NCBI GenBank assembly: GCA_017654855.1 | Contig: CM030338.1 | Span: forward strand, 3,472,001 to 3,536,000 | Source of the DNA: Podospora anserina | Lineage: Eukaryota | Length of the DNA: 64,000 bases | Direction: 5' to 3' | Shown: one piece after another, positions 611 through 10,900 of the stretch | Layout of the letters: each line of letters opens with the position of its first letter | How positions within the stretch are numbered: the first letter of the stretch is position 1 | Translations under genes and position numbers: made by a program | The notes under the pieces: generated by a model | What the model was told of the DNA's origin: nothing | What the model saw: only the letters and a program-made list of their open reading frames with translations | Database searches by the model: none

Positions 611-3600
611 TGCCTGCCGCGAGAAATTTAGCGCAAATGCTTCCCAGTTCGGGCAATAATTTTCACCCCTCCAGGGAGTCGGGACGAGGACCCCACAAAG
701 GACCCGGGCCCCAGCATGCAATCCCGCCCTCCCCCCATGTTTCGCCGGCTCTGCTTGAATATCGACAGCTGCGCTGTATCGACATAAAGCGGTGATGCAA
801 GCATGCGCGTGTGATGATCCTGGAGAGTGTCATCGGCTCTTCGAAAAACCACAAAAAGAAACGTCGAGTACACTACCCAAAAGTGCATGTAGCTGGAAAG
901 GATCAGCCGCCCCTGACAGAAATACCCGTCTCGTCGTGAAAGCTTCCGCAAACAGAACAGCTTTTTGTGGCGGCTGCTGCCATGCTTTGGTGCCAGATTC
1001 GCGAGCCCAGCCTTTTCCTGCGACATAAAAGGTCAAGCGTTCTTTTGCTAGTCAGGAACGTCTGTGTATTCCCGCTTCCTAGTAGGTCGCCTTTATGTGT
1101 CGAACTGGGATGTGGGAGCCGAAGCCGTCTCTCGGCCGAGGGGCATTCCATTTTTCTTTGAAAGCATGGTCCGGCCCGTTCATAGCGGCCATTTGCGGGT
1201 GGTGCTCGCCCGCACCCCGCCCCCTTGGTTACTCTATCTCCTGTTCGGAGTACTGCATAGGTGTCTGTGGCAACCCTGGCGGTGGCATTTTTTTTGTATT
1301 TTTTTGTATTTGCTTTCGTTCGTATTCGAATGCATCTCTCCCACCGCTCTTTCTATTGTGGTGTCATGTCGATTGCCATCCCGCTTACTCCCACGCAACG
1401 TCCAGCTCACTAAGATCACAATGTGAGCCCTTCGGCCCGTGTTGCAGATGAGGAGCCACAATGAACTGGACGGAGATCGAACGAGAATAAAAAACTGGCG
1501 CATGACAAATTAATCTTGTCTGCTTTCTTCAACGTTCCCACAGGCCCGAAACGTTCTTAAGCTGTTCGATATCGGAGTTGACCTGGCCAGCACGTGGCGA
1601 ACCTGATAACCTACATTTAGGTAAAAAACGAATGTTTCTTACTAACGGCCTGGAGTGACCAATTTGTTCAGTCATACTTTGATCTCAATTCAATAATTTG
1701 ACGGGAAGAGTCGGGTGTCCTTTCAGCCAACCATCGAGCAAAGGTCAGTCCAAAATTCCATTGCATGGTGATTCTGTCAAGCCGCCCCAGATGGCAGTCG
1801 AGGTTCCAGCCAGTTGCCACGACTACCCTCATCGTCGGAGCCGCTTCTTTGTGATGTTCTGCTGAACTGAGGCTGGCAATCTGATGCAGCCGGTGGCTTG
1901 GACTCCTCGGCATCAGGCATTGGCACCGTGCCCCTCCAAGACATCACACGCGGTTTTAGTGTGATCCAAACCACCGGGTCGGTTGAGATCTGTCAACTTT
2001 GCCCTTGACAGATCATCTCACTAACTGCTTTTAGCGACAACCTCATGTAGGTTTTGGGCCGACCATAAGCTGGCCTTTATCGTACTTGAGTATCAGTTGA
2101 TTTCTTCCTTTATTTCTTGTTACTTCTTTGCTTCTCTCGCCCGCTCTTTTGCTTCCAGCTAACCACCGGCCGCCCATCCAAGACACCTGGCAACAAAAGC
2201 ATCAGGTTCTGTCGCATTCAGCTTGTCTCTGTCTGGACGTGACTAAAAACCTGTGTTCTAGACCGCCTCTAGAAGCCCCTATCAGCTCTCAAACTCCCTC
2301 GCACAACCTTTGGCCCGTGATCAGGAAGCAGCTGTGTGTGACTTGTCAGTTATCCGAGTCAAGTTCTGCTCTTCCCTCTGAGCCAATATTTAGCCCAGAT
2401 CGGCGCTACTGGGCAGCACAAGCATACAGCAGTGATCGCAATCGCCATTGCCGGTTTCCCTGAAACTGGCGACGGTGGAGGATGGGGTTGGTGGAGAAGA
2501 GCCATGTTTGGCCAAGCTCACCAGCTGAAAGCAAGGAGTCGTTGGCTAGTAATAAGCTATCAACAGGTGATGCTCACACCTTGCTTCACAACCAAGTCCT
2601 GTCGTTACGAGGTCGGACAAACCTGCCAGACACAGCGCTGTGGCTTGTAGGCAGTCACATTCATGTTTATGTCCCCGGACGGGGTGTCTTCTGGATGTCA
2701 GCGATGCCTTCTACGATTTTCCCGGCGTGGCCGGTCAAATCCCCGATTAGTGCGCAAGCTATTTACGTTCGCGACGGCATCACACCAGGCACCCCAGCTG
2801 CCCCGGATTTTCGCTGCTCTGAAAATCAAGCTTAGCACGCTAATTTAGTTTCGCCACAACACCCCAAGTGCGAAACCTTAATTCAACTCACTCCCGCCCG
2901 CTGGTGTCCACGGAGCCACGGTTGGTTTGTCCCGCTACTCGATCAAGAAACATGGACGGCTTGAAACGCATATCGCAGGGCACTTCGGAACTTTGGCCAC
3001 GAGATGGGATGCTGTCTGTGGTTCTGATTTGGCAGAGATGAGGACGTCTGCTTACACTATGTCTCGGGAGAACTTGGTGCCAGGTTACACACCACACCGA
3101 TCAGTGCTACTGCGTAGGTTCTCTCGGTTCTTGGCTCTTCTTTTCTTCCGCATTTTCTTCTCGCAGATTTCCCATGCTGGCCACGCGGTCGGAGATGGCC
3201 ACCGCGACGTAACCTCCCAGACGCTTCGCCTGTAAATACAGCATTCATGCCATGCACACTGGCGGCGGCCGCTGAAACTGGGGCCTGGCAAAACAGACGA
3301 AGCACGTGGCATTCCCGAGGTCCGCCGTGTGCTTACTATGTGTGTGACTGTGTTCTTGCGCCGCACAATATTGCGTTGAACCGATGATGCTTCGAAATCC
3401 CAAAAACTGCTTGTGAATATCGATCGGCGGGAAGCTCTTCTCAGAGATCAACTCATCACCTTTCGATCCATCGGGCTAGTGCGGAATTTGAATAAGTTGC
3501 GAAGATCCTCGCTTAATGGCTTTCCCAACTGATATTTTTCCAGCCACCTCTTTGGAACCACACAGTGTTCCGCACATGGCAGCGACTGGACCCCGGAATG

Positions 3601-6156
3601 CAATGCACCAGCCCAGGGTTACTCTGCAAAGCCATGTTTCTTGGGGTGAGCCGCGCTCCTACCCTATTCCAGATAGTGTAGTCACCTTCCCTAGCATGTA
3701 GCAATTCCTTCACTTCGGAACCTGGGTTTCGAGAAGATCATGGTTTTTTTCGGGCAAGACAACATAATGAAGCGTGGAAACGAGATGGTGGGTAGAAAGA
3801 GAGCAAAGGTCAATGCTGAATTCTTGATCGATGCAGAATGCAGCATGCACAGATACCTGCACATACTCGGCATATTCATTCACGCAGAACCAGCCCGTCA
3901 CATTACCCGTCTCTTTGCCACACCTTGCACACCACACAACCTGGACCTCTCTGCCGCCACTTCCCTCTGGATTTTTTATCCCCCATTAGTAGGAGCAAAG
4001 AGGGAAAAAAAAACAACGGCCCATCGGCAGGATTTGCGAGCTGGTTGCCCCCCATTCTTTTTGGCAGTTGCCCTTCTTGTTCGACCCACCATTCCGTCCC
4101 AAGCGTGTCAAAAAAGCACAGACACGCTGCAACCTCTCCGAACCACACAAACACTGACCACAACTTAACATCTGCATACATTTACCACTTCCTCACTGTC
4201 CGCTGAACCGCTCGGAGGAGGGCTTCTTACGTGCCGACAGCCTGCAACACTACCTCCAACCAGGCTCAGCATCTCGGGCCACAGATTGGACTTGACGGTC
4301 CCTCACCAGCAAGAGGTTCGAGCCACGAGTCATTAACCCGCAGCTGGGCATTGAGGGGGGGGAGCTCAGCAGGAGGGCACATCCTGGCAGGCAAATCCAC
4401 CTGAGGTGGGCTCGCACCAGACCAGGAAGCCGGGGTTGCATGGGCGATTGGTTGGCTGCCCACTTTTTTTTAGCTGAATTATCCTGCGGCTTCGATAAGA
4501 GAAAGCGCAAACCCTGGGGGCAACCTGGACAGTCGCTGGATCATCAAAGGCCGAGGGTCCCCGAAGGCGAAAACGATTACCTATTGCCCGCCTTATTTCA
4601 CCGGAAATCGTAGAAACAGCCGGTCGCCGTGTGTTGTCGACGGGTAACGAGAAACGGGAGGCGGCCAGAAGCCGGGAACTGACAACAACAAAAAAACAAC
4701 AAACCCCGGCCCGTACTGCCTTTTGACCGCACACTCCGCAGTAACCTACCTGGGTATCATCAGTCAGTCCCCTGTCCCGATCACTTGTGGGCTGGTGGGG
4801 ATTCCTCGTTGCTCCAGGTCGGCTGGTGTCCCATTCTGCTGCTGCCCAGCGTTCAGCAACCGCAAGCACCCATTCGCAAGGACCCCAGCATCTACACTAC
4901 ATACATACCAAACATCGGCTCAATTCACGCAGTGCCTGCCTGTTGTCTGAGGTGGCCTTCCAAAGCAAGCCACTCCATACGTGAGAACTCGCCTGGACCA
5001 CGCGTCAAAAAAGACAAAAGACAGCAAGCAGTACACGCCTCTGAGGACATCTCAACAGGCCTTCAAGGTCAACTAACATATTGTATTTACACCTTCACCG
5101 ACTTCCAGTAATTACCAGCCATTTTGTGCAGGACGTGCCTGCCCAGGCTCAGCACATCCTCCTCCACACGGGCTCCACTCATCTTGTCAACGATTCGAGA
5201 ACGTCAACCCCTCCCTCTCATTCACTTTCGTCCACGCGCACCATCACAGTGGGTAGCCTGAACTGGGGTGACCACCCCTTCATCTGTTGCAACTGGAGAA
5301 TTATACCGGCCCTGCTAGGTTTGGACCATACAGCTTACCGGTACCCCATCTATCTCATTTCCCACTCACCACACCTGTATAAAATTCGCGTCCTCCCGCA
5401 CTAAGCTCGATATTCCCTCGCGCATTTCTCTGGAGGGCGGCTCCCGACTTCAGTCTGCACATCAATCAGCATCTGGAACGTGCCTCTCTTTTCGCAGAGG
5501 CGACAGGCTTCATCACCACACAGCATCCTCCATCATCACAAGCTGTTACATACATCAGCGACGACAAGCCGCCGTCGTCGATCAACAGAGTCAGTCCTCA
5601 GCAAAGCACAAACCTTAAAACAGACCCATCAAGCTATCCCGTACTGTCGAGAGGGAGAGCCACTTTTCTAGCCCTTTTAGCGCCTTCGCCCTGAAAAGAG
5701 AATCGTGCAGTGGCAGAGGGAGAGAGGCACTGGGCGCATTTTAGCCAAACTTTTTTTTCCGCCAAGGGTGGATCTCTTGAAAGTCAGAACCATCCTTGTC
5801 TGGTGACTGGATTGATCTGCTTGGTGGACGCCTATCAACAAGCCCCCATCGAGTCAAGTACAAGGACCCTGGTTCTGCGGAGTCCCCTCAGAGCTACCAA
5901 GAGGAAGACCGTCTGGGCCCAACAAAGCTAAATAAGAGCGCCAGCATCGCCGGTCCTCGAGCTATCAGGTGCCGGGTCATCGACGATTCATCAAGGCTAC
6001 AGCCCTCTACCCCTTGTCTGTCTGAACGCCTTAATACATTGTTCCCGCCGCCGCCCGCTACTTGGGACGAAAGCAGCCATCTTTCAATCCGCCAGACCTC
6101 CCGCTTTACGCCTCCACCAGCAGCTCGCTTCACGCCGATTCCACCCAGACGGGAGT

Positions 6157-7906
6157 ATGCTTAGGGAGCTTCCACCACAGCAGGCTACATCGCTCCCCCG
6201 CCCTGGCCAGGAACAGCTGCCAGGCAAACAGCATATGGAACGCACTGCCGACTATTCAGGTTTGCCATCGCCTTATCCTAGTACCGTCGGCGACGCCCAA
6301 TCTGAGGCCTCTTCTGTAGATCCTGCTACGGTTGCATCAACAACATATTCTCAGCAGCCAGAAGTGAGGTCAGCAACCGCGTACCCGGCAGCAGGCACGC
6401 CAACTTCTTCAGAGTACAGCGTGTATCCTCCTCACTCGGCCCGGTCTGCCAACGGCACTTTTCCGGACACCCATCTCCAGCGTTCCTACCACCCGGCCAG
6501 CAACCACCAAGGCAGCAGTGGAGGTATGGCGCAAACACCAACCAGTCCGTTGCCTTTACAAGATGGGCGTAGCCATCACAACCCGCAGCAAGCCAGATCT
6601 GACAGCGGAGTACCTATAGATCCATCAATCGCCGCAGCAAGCCCGACGACGTATTCTCATCCGCAATATTCGCCCTACGCCGCTCCCCATCAAGACATGT
6701 CCCACCAATACGCCCACTCGGGTGTTTACCAGACAAGTCGACCAGATTGGGCCACCTATCAGTCCCCTGGCGGGGTTATGGCCGGAGGCCACCACGCTGT
6801 CTTCGCCCCATCAGCATCGGCAGCTGCTCAACCACGACCTAATCAGGTGAGTTTGGTGTGTCTTCCTTTCCAGAACAGCACTTCGCGCTCGAAGAGATGC
6901 GGCGGGTATGGGACCATGGTGTGTTTTTTTGGGGGGGTGGGAGGACGCTCCGGCATCGGACTCTGCTGGTGATCTTGTTGTCTGTGGAATCGGCGTGGCT
7001 CCACTTGTAAGCAGGCAATCAGGGGTTTGGAGGGGGGTCGAGAACAACGATCGGAATGGCACAGAGGTTGAAAGATTGGGAAACGACAGCTTGCTAACGG
7101 CTGTGGCGCAGGTGTACTCATTCGTGCCAATTCCGGGCGCGCAACAACATAAGCGCCCTCGGAGAAGATATGAAGAAATCGAGCGCATGTATAAGTGCGG
7201 GTGGAATGGGTGCGAAAAGGCCTATGGGACACTCAACCATCTCAATGCGCATGTCACCATGCAGGGTCATGGAAACAAGAGGACTCCTGAAGGTATGTGT
7301 GTCTTTTCATTGTGTTGCTCAATTTAGTGCCGCACCAGCGCGCGCTTGTTTTGGTTTCCCGAGTTTTGGTTCCCTTTGGCGTTGCGTCCTCGCGGGCTAG
7401 CGCTGGGTCGAACCGGCCTGTTGGTATTCAATAACAACGCCATGTCCCGACTGATAACTAACTTGTGCGCCTCGTAGAATTCAAGGAAATACGTAAAGAG
7501 TGGAAGGCGCGCAAGAAGGAGGAGGAAGCTCAAAGGAAGGCGGAAGAAGAGCGCCAACGCCAGGCTGCCGCCTCCGCCGCTGCTGCGCAAGGCACGGCGG
7601 ATTCCTCCGTCGCCGACGGTGCCCAACCAGCCACCACATATTCGGGTTCGAGGGCCGTTCAGCTCCCGCCGATTGGCTACGGTCCTGCTCAGTACCCTGC
7701 CCCTCCTTCGGCGGGCATGCAGCAGCCCCTTTCCGAGTACCAGAGCGCTGCTCACGTCTACCCCAGCTACTCGCCCCCTACGTACGGTCAAACATCTCAG
7801 CCAATGTATAACCAGCGTATGTAACCCTGATCGGGCATGCTGTCGGCAATGTTGCATTCTAACACACTGCTTTGCTGAAGACAACGGCGGCCAAAACAAC
7901 CACTAG
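6157..7906 (+). CDS. con7: C2H2 zinc-finger transcription factor, Con7 type (~411 aa); exons 6157-6846, 7112-7292, 7478-7816, 7881-7906
   Basis: Exon 2 encodes VYSFVPIPGAQQHKRPRRRYEEIERMYKCGWNGCEKAYGTLNHLNAHVTMQGHG, followed by EFKEIRKEWKARKKEEE, the signature of Con7-family factors. Three GT..AG introns with branch points; the spliced length (1236 nt) is in frame. The start codon is the first ATG after a long ATG-free stretch. Confidence 0.9.
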
Positions 7907-10900
7907 AGGGAGGAGGCTTTGCGATGGAGTGGAGCAGGTTATGACGATGGCACAATGCCACCATGGAGCTGAATGCTCGAGATACTCATGGCGTCATGTC
8001 TACACTTCGTGCCGTAGAGCCGGTCGAAAGGAAGCGCCGATATGGCTTTACTTTGATTTTTGTGGAGCGTTCACACAAGCTGCCGATAATTTTCGAGGTC
8101 GGCTGACGAGGATAGGGGGGCTAGGTTGGTATCGACAGGTTTGGTCGGAGCGGAGCATTTACAAAGTCATGGCTGTCTCGGAGCATTGGGTTGAAGGTGT
8201 TTGTTGTGGTTCTTGTGTTGTTGTTTTTGGCAACCTTCCCGCGCTAATGTTATCTTACCAAAACTGTATACTTTCTGGGAGGGTTGCGAGACCTCTTTTT
8301 CATTTTTCGGTTGTGGAGGAAATACCCCGGGGATGGAGAATGCTTGGTTGGCGGATGTGTGGAGTTGTCTGTGTCTTGATTGAATTCTCGCTTATTGTTT
8401 ATGTCTACATATCTATTCTTCTCTTTCCTGCACATCAAATCAAATTGAGAGCGGGGGGTGTTTTGCGAGTTTGTTTTGCAAGGCTTTGAAAGAAAGATTA
8501 TAGAGATCAGGAAATAGGGAAAAGGAGGTATGGGAGGTGCGTGTTGGCAGTCGGTGAAAACGAGAGAAGGATGGGTGATGGCTTTGTGCGTTGTTGAGTG
8601 AGGAGCATGGCACAATGCTCGGAACAGACGCAAGCAAAGGGTGGAGAGCAAGGAAAAGGCGTGCATAATTAGATCATGCTGGGAGGTGCCTTTGTCACTG
8701 ACTACTGGCATTGCCGCCGACGATCAGCCCTGGCAACTGGAAAGCCGTTCCCTGGATTGCTCGTGGTGCGGCTTCGCCAGCAGGCAATGGAAAAGGTGCG
8801 GTTGCATATGATACGGCGACCGTCCACCTACCCAAGCATTTGTTACGTTATATAAGCACGCCGTGGGATGGGCTCTGACTTGGTATGGGAAAAAACCAGA
8901 CCAGGCTCATGTCCACATACATACGAGGCGAGGAAGAGGAACATCCAACCGCCGCCCCCCTCTCAAGAAGCAGAGCGGAACTTATCTAGAAACTTGAGGA
9001 TCAAAATTGTAAAACTCAAACAAACAACAGCCAAGCGCTCTACCTTCCCGTTCTCTGATCTTTGTTCCTGTGTTGTGTAACCCTTTTGGCATGAACTTTC
9101 CATGTGCGATGCTGCTGCAGCTACCGCCCGAACCTTTTTAGTTTATTCTTCTAGAAGACGAACACGTTCCCACTGTTGAGAAGGTGCCACAAACGGCGGG
9201 ATGCAGTTGTAGGACGAGAACTTCCTCGAGGCGGCAGGTGGCCGAGAGCAAAAGGGCAGGTATACAGAAGTACCGGTACTTGCGAGGTACAAGACCTTCC
9301 TTACCTGCCCTGTCTTTGTATCTGTGGACGAACTTGACGCCATGGCCGGGGTGACCCCTAGCGATTAAGCTGTGTTGTAACGTTGGGATGTTTAGTCTCG
9401 GTGGCGGACTGCCCGGCCATGCATCGTCAACGGTTTTTGTTGAGTTGTGGTTTTTTTTCTTCCTCAGGGGTAATAACGTTTAGTGTGCTGCCGACGTTTT
9501 AAATTATTACGGAGAATACTGGCCAGTTAACTGAGTGGAAAATGTATATATACATTGCAGTCATTTTGACTGTTCTTCTTCTTCTTCTGGAAGAAGGGGG
9601 GGAGTGGTTGTCAAAACTGAGTGAACTGCGACAGGGGGTTGCTGTTGGGATGACGCAGTTGCTTAACTAGCGTTGTGTAACCACACTTTTCTTTTCTTCT
9701 TTTTCTTCTTTGGCATTGGGGGGTTTAATCGGGCCGGCTCGGGAGGTTGTCTTTCGGGAGCGGGCCGGGAAGGGGAGGGATGGATGGTGGAATAATTTAA
9801 CGAAAACTAAAAGTTTGTTGATCGACGGTTTTCTCTTCGCCAGGTTGGTGTACAGCAGCAAAGCCTGTGGGTTACATGAACGCTGCCGAGGACGAGAAGA
9901 AGATGCGAGGCAGATGACTTGCTTTTTGGGTGACACTTGTCATACTTTGGTTGCTTGAGAAGAAACCGGCTGGGATGGAAGGGGGGGAAGAGGGGGGGGG
10001 GGAGATACCGGAAGAGAAAGAAGGGGGGGGGCTGGGAGCTATACTCACTTGCTATGCAAAGGTTGAAATAAGCAGCTTTTTGCTCTTCCCGAGTGCCAGC
10101 CTGCCGGGAATGATCTGACGAGAAAAGCGAATGCTACTGTACGCGCAGGAAGCAGCACACATGCTTGCTGCACATATCCCACCCGGCACATGACGACAGG
10201 ATGGGGTGACAGTGCAAGAAACATGGAAGCATGACGGACATGGATTGTCGGAATCTGCCAGCCAAGGACCAGGACCGGGACCGGGACCGGGAAAAGGACC
10301 GACATGTTGGAACCCAATTGACTGGAGCCGAGGGAGAGCAGCCGGGGCGGGTTGCAGATACGGATAATCACAAAAAGGGGACCCGATGACTCTCGTTTAA
10401 ATCAACTACATGCTGCAGTCAGTGGGCTCGGTGTGACGGTTGCTACCTTGCTGTCCCGTAAAATGCTCGAGGGCAGTGCCTACCTAACCTCCATGTGCCC
10501 TGCAGCATGCCAAGTGTTGTGGCCCGTTGGGAAAGCAGTGGGTGATACTGTATGGATGGATGATGCTGTGCATTGTGCAGGTACGTACGACCTGACACTG
10601 ATACAACGGGCCAGATAACCAGACCACAGGGCTCGTTGATAGATAACTGTGCCGGGGAGACAGGACAAGGAGTTTTCTCAACCGCACAGCAGGGGGGAAA
10701 ATACGAGCAGTTGGGCAACGTTTGACCTGACTCTTCTCGTTTCTCTCTTACTCTGTTGATAGGGAGTAGGTAATGTAATGTACTGTACCTACCTTAACCC
10801 ACCACCACCAAGACTTGGTTGCATATGCACTCCATCGGTTCAGTCTCTTTACCTTAGCATTCCTTCGCTCCATTCTGGTGCCATCCATGCCCCATGCCTG

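Follow-up and report, generated by a model that had tools for sequence, protein, structure and literature searches.

In Candida albicans, the long 5′ untranslated regions (UTRs) of UME6, WOR1 and EFG1 control translational efficiency (PMC7849906). con7 resembles these genes in encoding a fungal transcription factor for development on an mRNA whose leader reaches the kilobase scale and could set protein output post-transcriptionally. Translational effects were measured for the Candida genes, whereas the evidence on con7 given here consists of sequence and RNA contigs. Con7, the product of a Pezizomycotina gene, is unrelated to the UME6, WOR1 and EFG1 proteins, and its hallmark, the near-total absence of AUG over 1–2.5 kb across classes without sequence conservation, is not described for the Candida genes in the excerpted text of PMC7849906.

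The Neurospora crassa cpc-1 mRNA also has a long leader, of over 700 nt, and both cpc-1 and yeast GCN4 are controlled by uORFs (upstream open reading frames; PMC5487733). Like them, con7 encodes a transcription factor with a long fungal leader that is proposed here to be read by scanning ribosomes. cpc-1 and GCN4 use conserved AUG-initiated uORFs, whereas con7 shows the opposite: upstream AUGs (uAUGs) are purged, leaving one non-conserved upstream ATG (uATG) and no conserved uORF peptide. Comparable leader lengths are found in another filamentous ascomycete, Aspergillus fumigatus, in which the 5′ UTRs of AFUB_035670 (2150 nt) and AFUB_067240 (2111 nt) contain 30 and 34 uAUGs, and the authors doubt that the annotated start is used (PMC12810187). 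These counts are approximately the random expectation, against one uAUG for con7.

ATG deserts have been described at mammalian dispersed core promoters (Lee et al. 2005, cited in PMC5580651), where start sites are spread over 50–100 nt (PMC5580651). The con7 region is similar in being depleted of ATG, so that transcripts from several starts, if used, would yield one protein. It differs in comprising 1–2.5 kb of transcribed leader in a single fungal gene family, in being strictly strand-specific and in ending at the start codon.

The excerpted literature on Pyricularia, Fusarium and Penicillium gives Con7 a central regulatory role in conidiation, cell-wall remodelling and infection-related development, and prior work has centred on transcription, targets and alternative splicing. 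None of the literature matches listed for con7 and UTR takes the con7 leader as its subject, and the terms 'UTR' and 'untranslated' are absent from the F. graminearum Con7 paper.

A strand-specific ATG deficit upstream of con7

The window is the 64-kb stretch of Podospora anserina DNA analysed here, and its features around con7 are collected in Table 1. By direct count, the + strand ATGs within 3800–6400 lie at 3813, 3831, 3838, 3845, 4440, 6157 and 6235. The preliminary description had reported no + strand ATG in 4443–6156, a sole ATG at 4440 in 3848–6156 and approximately 38 copies of the reverse complement CAT in 4443–6156; the direct count agrees on each point, with exactly 38 CAT. The 1717-nt gap before con7 is the largest on either strand of the window. 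The runners-up measure 676 and 595 nt on the + strand and 615 nt on the − strand, and the 595-nt gap (3845–4440) adjoins the desert itself. The cluster of four ATGs that borders the ATG-poor region lies approximately 155 nt upstream of contig beginnings in three studies.

Table 1. Features of the con7 locus, in window coordinates.
Feature	Coordinates	Strand	Basis or remarks
Four-ATG cluster (3813, 3831, 3838, 3845), upstream border of ATG-poor region	3813..3847	+	
Apparent con7 mRNA 5′ leader, ~2.15 kb, one uATG, no splice joint seen	4002..6156	+	RNA contigs
Single uATG of leader, 57-codon uORF	4440..4613	+	T at −3 (weak context); ends 1544 nt before main ATG
ATG-free stretch, 1714 nt	4443..6156	+	Direct ATG count and dinucleotide shuffles
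Conserved leader block	5372..5424	+	TATAAAA (5378–5384), ~12 nt, TCCCGCACTAAG-like element, T/C-rich run
Coding exon 1	6157..6846	+	First ATG 6157; conserved second Met 6235
Exitron, 60-nt in-frame alternative intron in exon 1	6260..6319	+	Joint 6257/6318, cut +2, run X6
75-nt in-frame alternative intron in exon 1	6545..6619	+	Joint 6544/6620, GT..AG, X6 and X11
Intron 1, 265 nt	6847..7111	+	Joint in 4/4 runs
Exon 2, basic stretch and single C2H2 zinc finger	7112..7292	+	Pfam Zap1_zf1
Intron 2, 185 nt	7293..7477	+	Joint in 4/4 runs
Exon 3	7478..7816	+	RNA contigs
Intron 3, 64 nt	7817..7880	+	Joint 7816/7881 in 4/4 runs
Last coding exon, stop TAG	7881..7906	+	Resulting C-terminus like those of P0002 and P0021
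3′ UTR, ~1.1 kb	7907..9000	+	Contig ends 8979–9020

Dinucleotide-preserving shuffles of 4443–6156 contained a mean of 16.7 ATGs (sd 3.2, minimum 4); none of the 5000 reached the observed zero. No other of the 64 trinucleotides is as depleted in the desert as ATG (0 versus 16.6 expected), TAG coming next at 0.48, and the 38 copies of CAT compare with 29.5 expected, a count attained by 78 of the 5000 shuffles. Because the leader in the window is C-rich and G-poor, the ATG expectation falls to 16.7 from the 25–27 given in the preliminary description; the earlier figure overestimates for the local composition, and its conclusion is unchanged. The ATG deficit is real and far outside chance. It is specific to one strand, with CAT normal, exceeds what base or dinucleotide composition explains, and stops in the window at the main start codon.

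Depletion at orthologous loci

The ortholog set comprised 23 non-duplicate con7 loci, namely 22 metagenome contigs and the window. Placed by nearest named protein, they represent no fewer than four Pezizomycotina classes (Sordariomycetes, Leotiomycetes, Dothideomycetes, Pezizomycetes and Lecanoromycetes-like), and the related loci L021/L023/L059, L064/L071 and L044/L053 are not fully independent. Counted over the fixed interval −1500 to −1 in all 23 loci, which gives the unbiased count, ATG occurs 45 times versus 295 expected and CAT 550 times versus 521. In 250-nt bins, the observed/expected ratio for ATG is 0.94–1.18 between −6000 and −2250 and 0.05–0.17 within −1250 to −1, with CAT near 1.0 upstream of con7. 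Eighteen loci measure at least 10 kb, and in every one of them no ATG-free gap on either strand exceeds the one upstream of con7; all 15 gaps of at least 1000 nt among the 11,155 in these loci lie there too. Seventeen cDNA-like contigs are spliced across intron 2, and 13 of the 14 that include the full start have no ATG between it and the upstream contig end, 91–781 nt away. Five loci (L040, L046, L075, L033 and L080) are less clean, with several upstream ATGs inside 1.5 kb.

The con7 upstream regions are mostly unalignable between loci; ATG depletion is maintained in the orthologs despite this sequence turnover, and the putative leader in other Pezizomycotina is approximately 1–2.5 kb long. 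The other 22 non-duplicate loci thus repeat, before con7, the strand-specific depletion first noticed in the window.

Further totals were drawn from 20 leaders, with L040, L046 and L075 left out. The boundaries of these leaders were taken from the deserts themselves, and the totals, in which ATG reaches 0.03 of its expected count and no other trinucleotide falls below TAA at 0.75, are descriptive only. Local base composition or strand-biased mutation could in principle have produced the deficit by chance, and the C-rich, G-poor leader does lower the expectation to 16.7. With no shuffle of the window region reaching zero, ATG singled out in this way over 20 leaders and CAT normal, such an origin is scarcely credible. 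Near-cognate start codons show no purge in the 20 leaders (CTG 1.16, GTG 1.23, TTG 1.26 and ACG 0.99), and the absence of ATG, through its effect on the computed expectation, inflates all four values.

All leaders are C-rich, with a GC skew of −0.14 to −0.43 compared with approximately 0 in most flanks. Their mean folding energy per 120 nt (−26.2 kcal/mol) matches that of mononucleotide shuffles (−26.4 kcal/mol) and is weaker than that of the antisense strand (−32.9 kcal/mol) and slightly weaker than that of the flanks (−28.2 kcal/mol). Predicted folding therefore resembles that of shuffled sequence, with no sign of special leader structure, and no Rfam family matched 3600–9200 at E ≤1. RNA-binding motifs take the forms CNYTCNYT (Ssd1-like) and TGTA[ACT]ATA (PUF-type). 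Counted in the 20 leaders against 100 dinucleotide shuffles, the Ssd1-like motif is not enriched (82 versus 99, z −1.8), and neither are the PUF-type motif (0 versus 0.3) and its core TGTA (50 versus 55). CCTCC is mildly enriched (z 3.8). CATC reaches z 14, and its excess is mostly a consequence of the ban on ATG, as a second-order estimate gives approximately 322 versus the 363 observed.

Transcription, start sites and scanning

Spliced contigs from four runs in four studies show the desert to be continuous with the con7 coding exons; the RNA nature of the runs was judged from spliced joints, not from run records. A single 4480-nt contig (X2) consists of 4005–6843, 7109–7290, 7476–7816 and 7881–8998, with three introns removed. 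The contigs of X1 and X6 span 4002–6849 and 4005–6259, respectively, and that of X11 begins at 4774. The three coding introns are absent, at GT..AG joints, from contigs of all four runs, and these contigs contain no splice joint inside the leader (4005–6156). At the contig level, then, transcripts from the con7 strand cover the depleted region and run on into the coding exons.

As spliced contigs extend from 4002/4005 into the coding exons, the implied leader measures ~2.15 kb, about 10 times the median P. anserina 5′ UTR of 178–191 nt (PMC9801653). The presumed locus tag of con7 is absent from the main text of that paper. The longest stop-to-stop frame wholly within it has 142 codons, so the leader holds no hidden gene. 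The contig ends at 4002–4005 in three studies are a weak hint of a true start site; the contigs are neither proof of one molecule over 4005–6157 nor a map of start sites, nor do they report relative isoform use. Contig depth was not used to rank isoforms, and the stretches without contig cover (approximately 3367–4001 in X1, 3463–4004 in X6, and 3220–4035 and 4214–4773 in X11) were kept out of the evidence. Transcription is also seen further upstream, at 2500–3750, where no gene is obvious.

The explanation that we favour, with a probability of roughly 0.8, is purifying selection against uAUGs in an exceptionally long con7 5′ leader, possibly accompanied by several start sites. The preliminary description had proposed that the con7 leader is at least 1.7 kb long and that selection acts against AUG in it; both the spliced contigs from four studies and the depletion in orthologs support this. 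Small ribosomal subunits would enter at the cap and move linearly by scanning until they meet the first AUG, at 6157. An AUG newly formed in the leader would draw initiation away and be removed by selection, and the remaining leader sequence would be free to drift, with the C-rich, G-poor composition keeping predicted structure modest. The main transcription start is probably near 4000, and further starts are likely in view of the contig from 4774 and the TATA block conserved at 5378; with the region free of AUG, every isoform would give the same protein. The exact start site or sites, one molecule bearing the entire leader and a modulation of Con7 translation by it are what we infer.

Alternatively, the assembler could have merged a con7 mRNA that has a short leader and a distinct non-coding RNA from upstream, in which case the lack of ATG would be unrelated to scanning. 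Contigs can fuse two transcripts, and the locus does include the transcribed stretch at 2500–3750. Such a merger gives no reason for an ATG loss on one strand that stops exactly at the con7 start in 23 mostly unalignable loci, and we consider it very improbable.

The preliminary description had also pointed to a TATAAAA near 5378. The motif is present at 5378–5384 and sits in a block that aligns with L046 and L040 (Sordariales-like) and L035 (Coniochaeta-like); in these four Sordariomycete loci, including the window, TATAAA precedes the start codon at −779, −836, −881 and −945. The block is a candidate proximal core promoter or RNA element. Its conservation makes a second, proximal start site plausible and points to a leader of only ~750 nt for a part, perhaps a large one, of con7 mRNA. 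A scan of 3700–4300 for bacterial-type promoters and terminators found 0, the models not being meaningful for a fungus.

It is accordingly possible, though we think it doubtful, that most con7 mRNA comes from the proximal TATA promoter (5378, leader ~750 nt), with minor starts upstream and a desert that keeps one protein across isoforms, as proposed for dispersed mammalian promoters. This overlaps with selection on a long leader, and the difference lies in which isoform dominates. The conserved position of the TATAAA block (−779 to −945) in four loci, the contig start at 4774 rather than 4005 in one of four runs and the precedent of ATG deserts at dispersed promoters (PMC5580651) speak for a dominant proximal start. 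In the other direction, the contigs of three studies that begin at 4002–4005 pass 5378 unbroken, and the desert reaches 935 nt upstream of the TATA motif, or 1530 nt if one ATG is allowed. TATAAA is, moreover, absent from the desert in the other 19 loci scanned, which still have deserts of 1–2.5 kb.

Under selection against uAUGs, a leader of about 10 times the median length has been kept nearly AUG-free in all the Pezizomycotina classes sampled while its sequence turned over, which implies that scanning ribosomes must cross 1–2.5 kb to make Con7. The idea that Con7 is controlled post-transcriptionally thereby becomes a concrete hypothesis that can be tested. Tentatively, and with the odds against it, the con7 leader may be an ancient, Pezizomycotina-wide translational gate, in which length, freedom from AUG and a C-rich, low-structure composition are kept rather than sequence. 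Con7 output would then be set by long-range scanning capacity together with the choice between distal and proximal starts, and development would be coupled to translational state. Were this so, scanning capacity would reflect helicase and initiation-factor activity, and hence nutrient or growth state. The distal start would provide a ~2.15-kb leader with one weak uORF and the proximal, TATA-driven start a ~0.75-kb leader, and the coupled development would comprise conidiation, fruiting bodies and infection structures.

Two practical points follow for con7 loci. The abrupt regain of normal ATG density could serve as an annotation marker, read from DNA alone, of the distal start region. In complementation or promoter-swap experiments, a 'native promoter' of 1–1.5 kb would in fact carry a truncated con7 leader.

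Upstream frames and the con7 gene

The uORF at 4440 is not conserved among con7 loci. Besides this one uATG in the window, seven more occur in the 19 other leaders, at differing places and with differing peptides, mostly as uORFs of 4–12 codons at least 950 nt upstream of the start. Across the 20 leaders there are no conserved AUG-initiated uORFs of the GCN4/cpc-1 type, and translated comparison of all leader frames found no peptide conservation between distant leaders. Translated matches are confined to closely related pairs and appear in all three frames, which indicates similarity of nucleotides and not of peptides.

The desert might be partly coding, through a non-AUG N-terminal Con7 extension (5932–6156) or a conserved regulatory non-AUG uORF such as the TTG frame at 5796–6164. 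Both frames, which the preliminary description had singled out, do exist: an in-frame stop TAA at 5929–5931 precedes an open frame running to the con7 start, and the TTG frame spans 122 codons. Near-cognate codons are unpurged, and N. crassa cpc-1 offers a known case of near-cognate initiation (PMC5487733). What does not hold for either frame is conservation, since the stretch before the start that is open in frame differs greatly in length from locus to locus and distant leaders share no peptide. Translated leader matches among close relatives only, in all three frames, and homologous proteins that begin at or past the equivalent of 6157 further argue against coding, which we regard as very improbable. 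An N-terminal extension from 5932 was rejected on the varying open length.

The gene at 6157 is identified by its sequence as a Con7-type C2H2 regulator. Queried with exon 1, Pyricularia oryzae proteins named 'C2H2 finger domain transcription factor con7' match at E 1e-28 to 6e-22; the top match is a Podospora pseudopauciseta protein with 100% identity, and PF27979 is precomputed on nearly all matches. A Pfam search of Con7 with the Pfam copy used returned no match to PF27979. Pfam Zap1_zf1 matches exon 2 alone at E 3e-06 (27.3 bits versus a cut-off of 27.2) and the full protein at E 4.9e-05 (23.4 bits, under the cut-off), and neither exon 1 alone nor exon 3 alone matches a Pfam family. The C2H2 finger and the preceding basic stretch (columns 232–304 of a 12-protein alignment) are almost all invariant, and the context of the first ATG is alike across classes, with A or G at −3 in 18 of 20 loci.

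The con7 transcript is also alternatively spliced. Contigs that retain intron 1 exist alongside the spliced ones (X1, 6820–7138). Within exon 1, the exitron excises a conserved GLPSPYPS... motif; aligned to the query, L008 and L009 are gapped at the exitron site, and the same 20-codon gap distinguishes the cDNA-like contigs L003, L004 and L005 from L002.

The ATG-free region upstream of con7

Purging of ATG upstream of con7 is strand-specific, independent of composition and conserved, and it ends at the start codon; RNA joins the ATG-free region to the spliced coding exons. Between 3800 and 6400, the + strand carries ATGs at 3813, 3831, 3838, 3845, 4440, 6157 and 6235 only. A recount bore out the preliminary description, in which the 1714 nt of 4443-6156 lacked ATG on the + strand and contained 38 CAT; 3848-6156 holds a single ATG. 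The resulting 1717-nt gap exceeds every other gap between ATGs on the two strands of the 64-kb window, followed by gaps of 676 and 595 nt on the + strand and 615 nt on the - strand, and the 595-nt gap (3845-4440) adjoins the desert itself. Among 5000 dinucleotide-preserving shuffles of 4443-6156, which averaged 16.7 ATGs (sd 3.2, minimum 4), none was as low as the observed zero. The 25-27 ATGs expected in the preliminary description were an overestimate because this sequence is C-rich, and the conclusion is unchanged. ATG is the most depleted trinucleotide in the region (0 against 16.6 expected), followed by TAG (0.48). A hidden gene was rejected as the cause of the desert, the longest stop-to-stop frame wholly inside 4005-6156 being 142 codons.

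Exon 1 of con7 alone matched 110 proteins. The best match, a Podospora pseudopauciseta protein of 405 aa, is listed at 100% identity, and its printed sequence differs from the window's exon-1 translation by one residue; the window is accordingly assigned to the Podospora anserina species complex rather than to one species of it. Several Pyricularia oryzae proteins named con7 were also matched (E 1e-28 to 6e-22). Exon 2 encodes a single C2H2 finger, around which an alignment of 12 proteins is almost invariant. The context of the first ATG is alike between classes, with a purine at -3 in 18 of 20 loci and (C/T)GTAG(T/C)ATGT (window 6151-6160) in many of them. This similarity suggests that the first ATG is a real, constrained start, besides the conserved downstream Met at 6235.

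RNA contigs across the leader

Contigs assembled from four sequencing runs of four studies (X1, X2, X6 and X11) have the three coding introns removed at GT..AG joints and therefore come from spliced RNA; the RNA origin of the runs is judged from these joints, not from run records. They link the desert to the coding exons, in support of the leader of at least 1.7 kb proposed earlier. No splice joint within 4005-6156 was reported in contigs of the four runs; thus an unspliced con7 leader exists, and rare spliced forms may occur alongside it. Contig starts of three studies agree within 4 nt and lie ~155 nt downstream of the clustered ATGs at 3813-3845. Since contigs cannot reveal start sites, the shared starts near 4002-4005 are a weak hint of one. 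At face value, the con7 mRNA is ~4.5 kb, with a leader of ~2152 nt, 1236 nt of coding sequence and a 3′ UTR of ~1.1 kb. Table 2 of the P. anserina re-annotation gives a 5′ UTR median of 178-191 nt and mean of 265-279 nt (PMC9801653). The only upstream ATG of the window leader, at 4440, opens a 57-codon uORF with T at -3; 1544 nt separate the end of this uORF from the main ATG.

The long 3′ UTR extends from 7907 to ~9000, the P. anserina 3′ UTR median being given as 212-239 nt (PMC9801653). The 64-nt last intron (7817-7880) is spliced in all four runs, and the resulting C-terminus resembles the ends of two database Con7 homologues, P0002 and P0021. In a third, P0001 (405 aa), the reading frame runs on into the intron and stops early, so the deposited model of this close relative probably misses the intron. 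Intron 1 is retained in contigs of X1 (6820-7138) and X11 (6916-7126), and the spliced form is also present.

Exon 1 contains in-frame alternative introns (exitrons) at 6260-6319, 6545-6619 and ~6522-6617, the first of which, 60 nt long, takes out the conserved GLPSPYPS... motif. A gap of the same 20 codons distinguishes the cDNA-like loci L003, L004 and L005 from the Colletotrichum-like L002. Compared with the query, L008 and L009 also have a gap at this position; the event therefore looks conserved. For P. oryzae, alternative splicing of CON7 is reported to be functionally important, and intron-retaining transcripts are described (PMC8475275). Upstream of the leader, contigs of all four runs cover 2500-3750, extending beyond the 2500 edge of the examined stretch; they stop at 3219-3750, with a low-depth X2 piece at 3744-4013. 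No gene-like ORF was found in 2500-3750, which may be non-coding RNA or an unannotated gene.

Con7 upstream regions across classes

Metagenome contigs were scanned with an alignment of 12 Con7 homologues, whereby 591 pattern matches yielded 103 confirmed relatives and 80 retained loci. The conserved Met (Podospora residue 27) was found in 57 loci, and the farthest in-frame ATG was taken as the start; 24 of the 57 have no upstream ATG to the contig limit (24-854 nt). The meta-profile required at least 1.9 kb upstream and comprised 22 loci and the window, some of these 23 being related to one another; L062 and L077 were dropped as duplicates of L051 (99% identity) and L076 (98% identity), respectively. 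As in the window, ATG is depleted and CAT normal upstream of con7 in this set: over -1500 to -1, ATG occurs 45 times against 295 expected and CAT 550 times against 521, with CAT at 0.76-1.18 of expectation in all bins.

Features of the con7 locus (window coordinates) and of con7 loci on metagenome contigs; distances are those between the start codon and the nearest ATG upstream of it, and class is that of the nearest named protein (% in brackets), not a phylogenetic placement
Feature	Position, ratio or distance	Remark
con7 exons	6157-6846, 7112-7292, 7478-7816, 7881-7906	+ strand
X2 contig	4005-6843, 7109-7290, 7476-7816, 7881-8998	single, 4480 nt
X1 contig	4002-6849	
X6 contig	4005-6259	
X11 contig	4774, via spliced exons, to 9000	
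TATAAA and downstream block	window 5372-5424; L046 ~9160-9215; L040 ~6865-6920; L035 ~5672-5730	
ATG observed/expected, -6000 to -2250	0.94-1.18	fixed windows, 22 loci and window
ATG observed/expected, -2250 to -1250	0.81, 0.76, 0.47, 0.33	four 250-nt bins
ATG observed/expected, -1250 to -1	0.17, 0.05, 0.08, 0.05, 0.13	five 250-nt bins
Sordariomycetes	window (Podospora) 1717 nt; L035 (Coniochaeta, 93%) 1965 nt; L052 (Xylariales, 89-90%) 1889 nt; L046 529, L040 235 (Sordariales-like)	L046, L040 less clean
Leotiomycetes	L064 2463 nt; L071 1534 nt; L044 (Hyaloscypha, 92%) 1210 nt; L053 982 nt	
Dothideomycetes	L021 2386 nt, L059 1961 nt, L023 1735 nt (Venturia-like, ~70%); L027 (Teratosphaeria, 77%) 1762 nt; L047 1210 nt; L069 (Pleosporales, 74%) 635	L069 less clean
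Pezizomycetes	L050 (Tirmania nivea, 97%) 1654 nt	
Lecanoromycetes-like	L051 1077 nt; L036; L076	
Other loci	L066 1170 nt; L033 1019 nt; L068 287; L075 153	L068, L075 less clean

Behind its single ATG, L044 has another gap of 2158 nt. In L036 and L076, a few ATGs beside the start are followed by 1.2-1.6 kb of desert. Counting the window, 18 loci are at least 10 kb long, and in every one of them the longest stretch without ATG, on either strand, lies in the con7 upstream region. Correspondingly, just 15 of 11,155 gaps in these loci reach 1000 nt, all 15 in con7 upstream regions. The 2-kb upstream regions can be aligned in few related pairs only (L023/L059, 69%; L064/L071, 79%), with short alignable pieces in L021 and in L044/L053. 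Given that they are mostly unalignable, the ATG-free state has been kept up while the sequence itself turned over and is not the legacy of a conserved sequence. Seventeen loci are cDNA-like, reading straight over the intron-2 junction, and 14 of them have the full start; 13 of these lack ATG in the 91-781 nt to the contig end (longest in L018, 781 nt, and L019, 762 nt), and L006 has one.

In 20 leaders totalling 35,792 nt (L040, L046 and L075 excluded), ATG occurs 8 times where 310 are expected (0.03), and TAA is second lowest among the trinucleotides (0.75); as leader limits were set post hoc by the deserts, these totals are descriptive only. CAT occurs 605 times, stop codons are close to expectation and near-cognate codons show no depletion in these leaders. 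Residual upstream ATGs mostly open uORFs of 4-12 codons at least 950 nt from the start. GC skew is -0.14 to -0.43 in all leaders (C-rich, G-poor) and ~0 in most flanks. The leaders are predicted to fold as strongly as shuffled sequence and less strongly than their antisense strands. Comparison of distant leaders yielded no conserved peptide uORF, and a scan of 3600-9200 in the window gave no Rfam match at E of 1 or less. Two RNA-binding-protein motifs, Ssd1-like CNYTCNYT and PUF-type TGTA[ACT]ATA, were not enriched in the 20 leaders.

Proposed scanning and candidate start sites

The scanning model of eukaryotic initiation is the basis of the steps proposed here. 43S complexes would load at the cap and traverse the entire con7 leader; any AUG within it would capture them, so that new AUGs would be selected against, and the C-rich, G-poor composition would keep structure low and suit long-range scanning. 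IRES-type initiation on this leader is unlikely, because it would make the purging of AUGs needless. More speculatively, Con7 output could be tuned by leader length or start-site choice, by analogy with Candida albicans UME6, WOR1 and EFG1, for which 5′ UTR effects on output have been measured (PMC7849906).

Precedents in kind exist for long regulatory leaders, in these same Candida regulators (PMC7849906), and for AUG avoidance, in the ATG deserts of dispersed mammalian promoters (PMC5580651). The uORF-based leaders of cpc-1/GCN4 are a counter-example (PMC5487733), and two 2.1-kb 5′ UTRs of A. fumigatus, in contrast to con7, contain 30 and 34 upstream AUGs (PMC12810187). The con7 leader is notable for its length, near-total absence of AUG and cross-class conservation without sequence conservation. 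No description of it was found among the listed papers on con7 and UTRs: the words 'UTR' and 'untranslated' are absent from the F. graminearum Con7 paper, and passages of a P. oryzae paper cover CON7 alternative splicing, not the leader (PMC8475275).

Within the Podospora leader, alignment to other loci is confined to 5343-5424, with matches to L046 at E 3e-5 and to L040 at E 9e-5. A block shared also with L035 consists of TATAAA, ~12 nt, a TCCC(G/A)CAC(T/A)AA element and a T/C-rich run, with TATAAA at -779, -836, -881 and -945 relative to the start codon in the four Sordariomycete loci; the deserts of the other 19 loci scanned all lack TATAAA. This conservation lends support to an earlier aside that TATAAAA at 5378 may mark a shorter transcript: it may drive one with a leader of ~750 nt, at least in Sordariomycetes. 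The block could equally be an RNA element. The desert reaches 935 nt upstream beyond the block (1530 nt if one ATG is allowed) and RNA contigs continue through it uninterrupted, so distal start sites must also matter.
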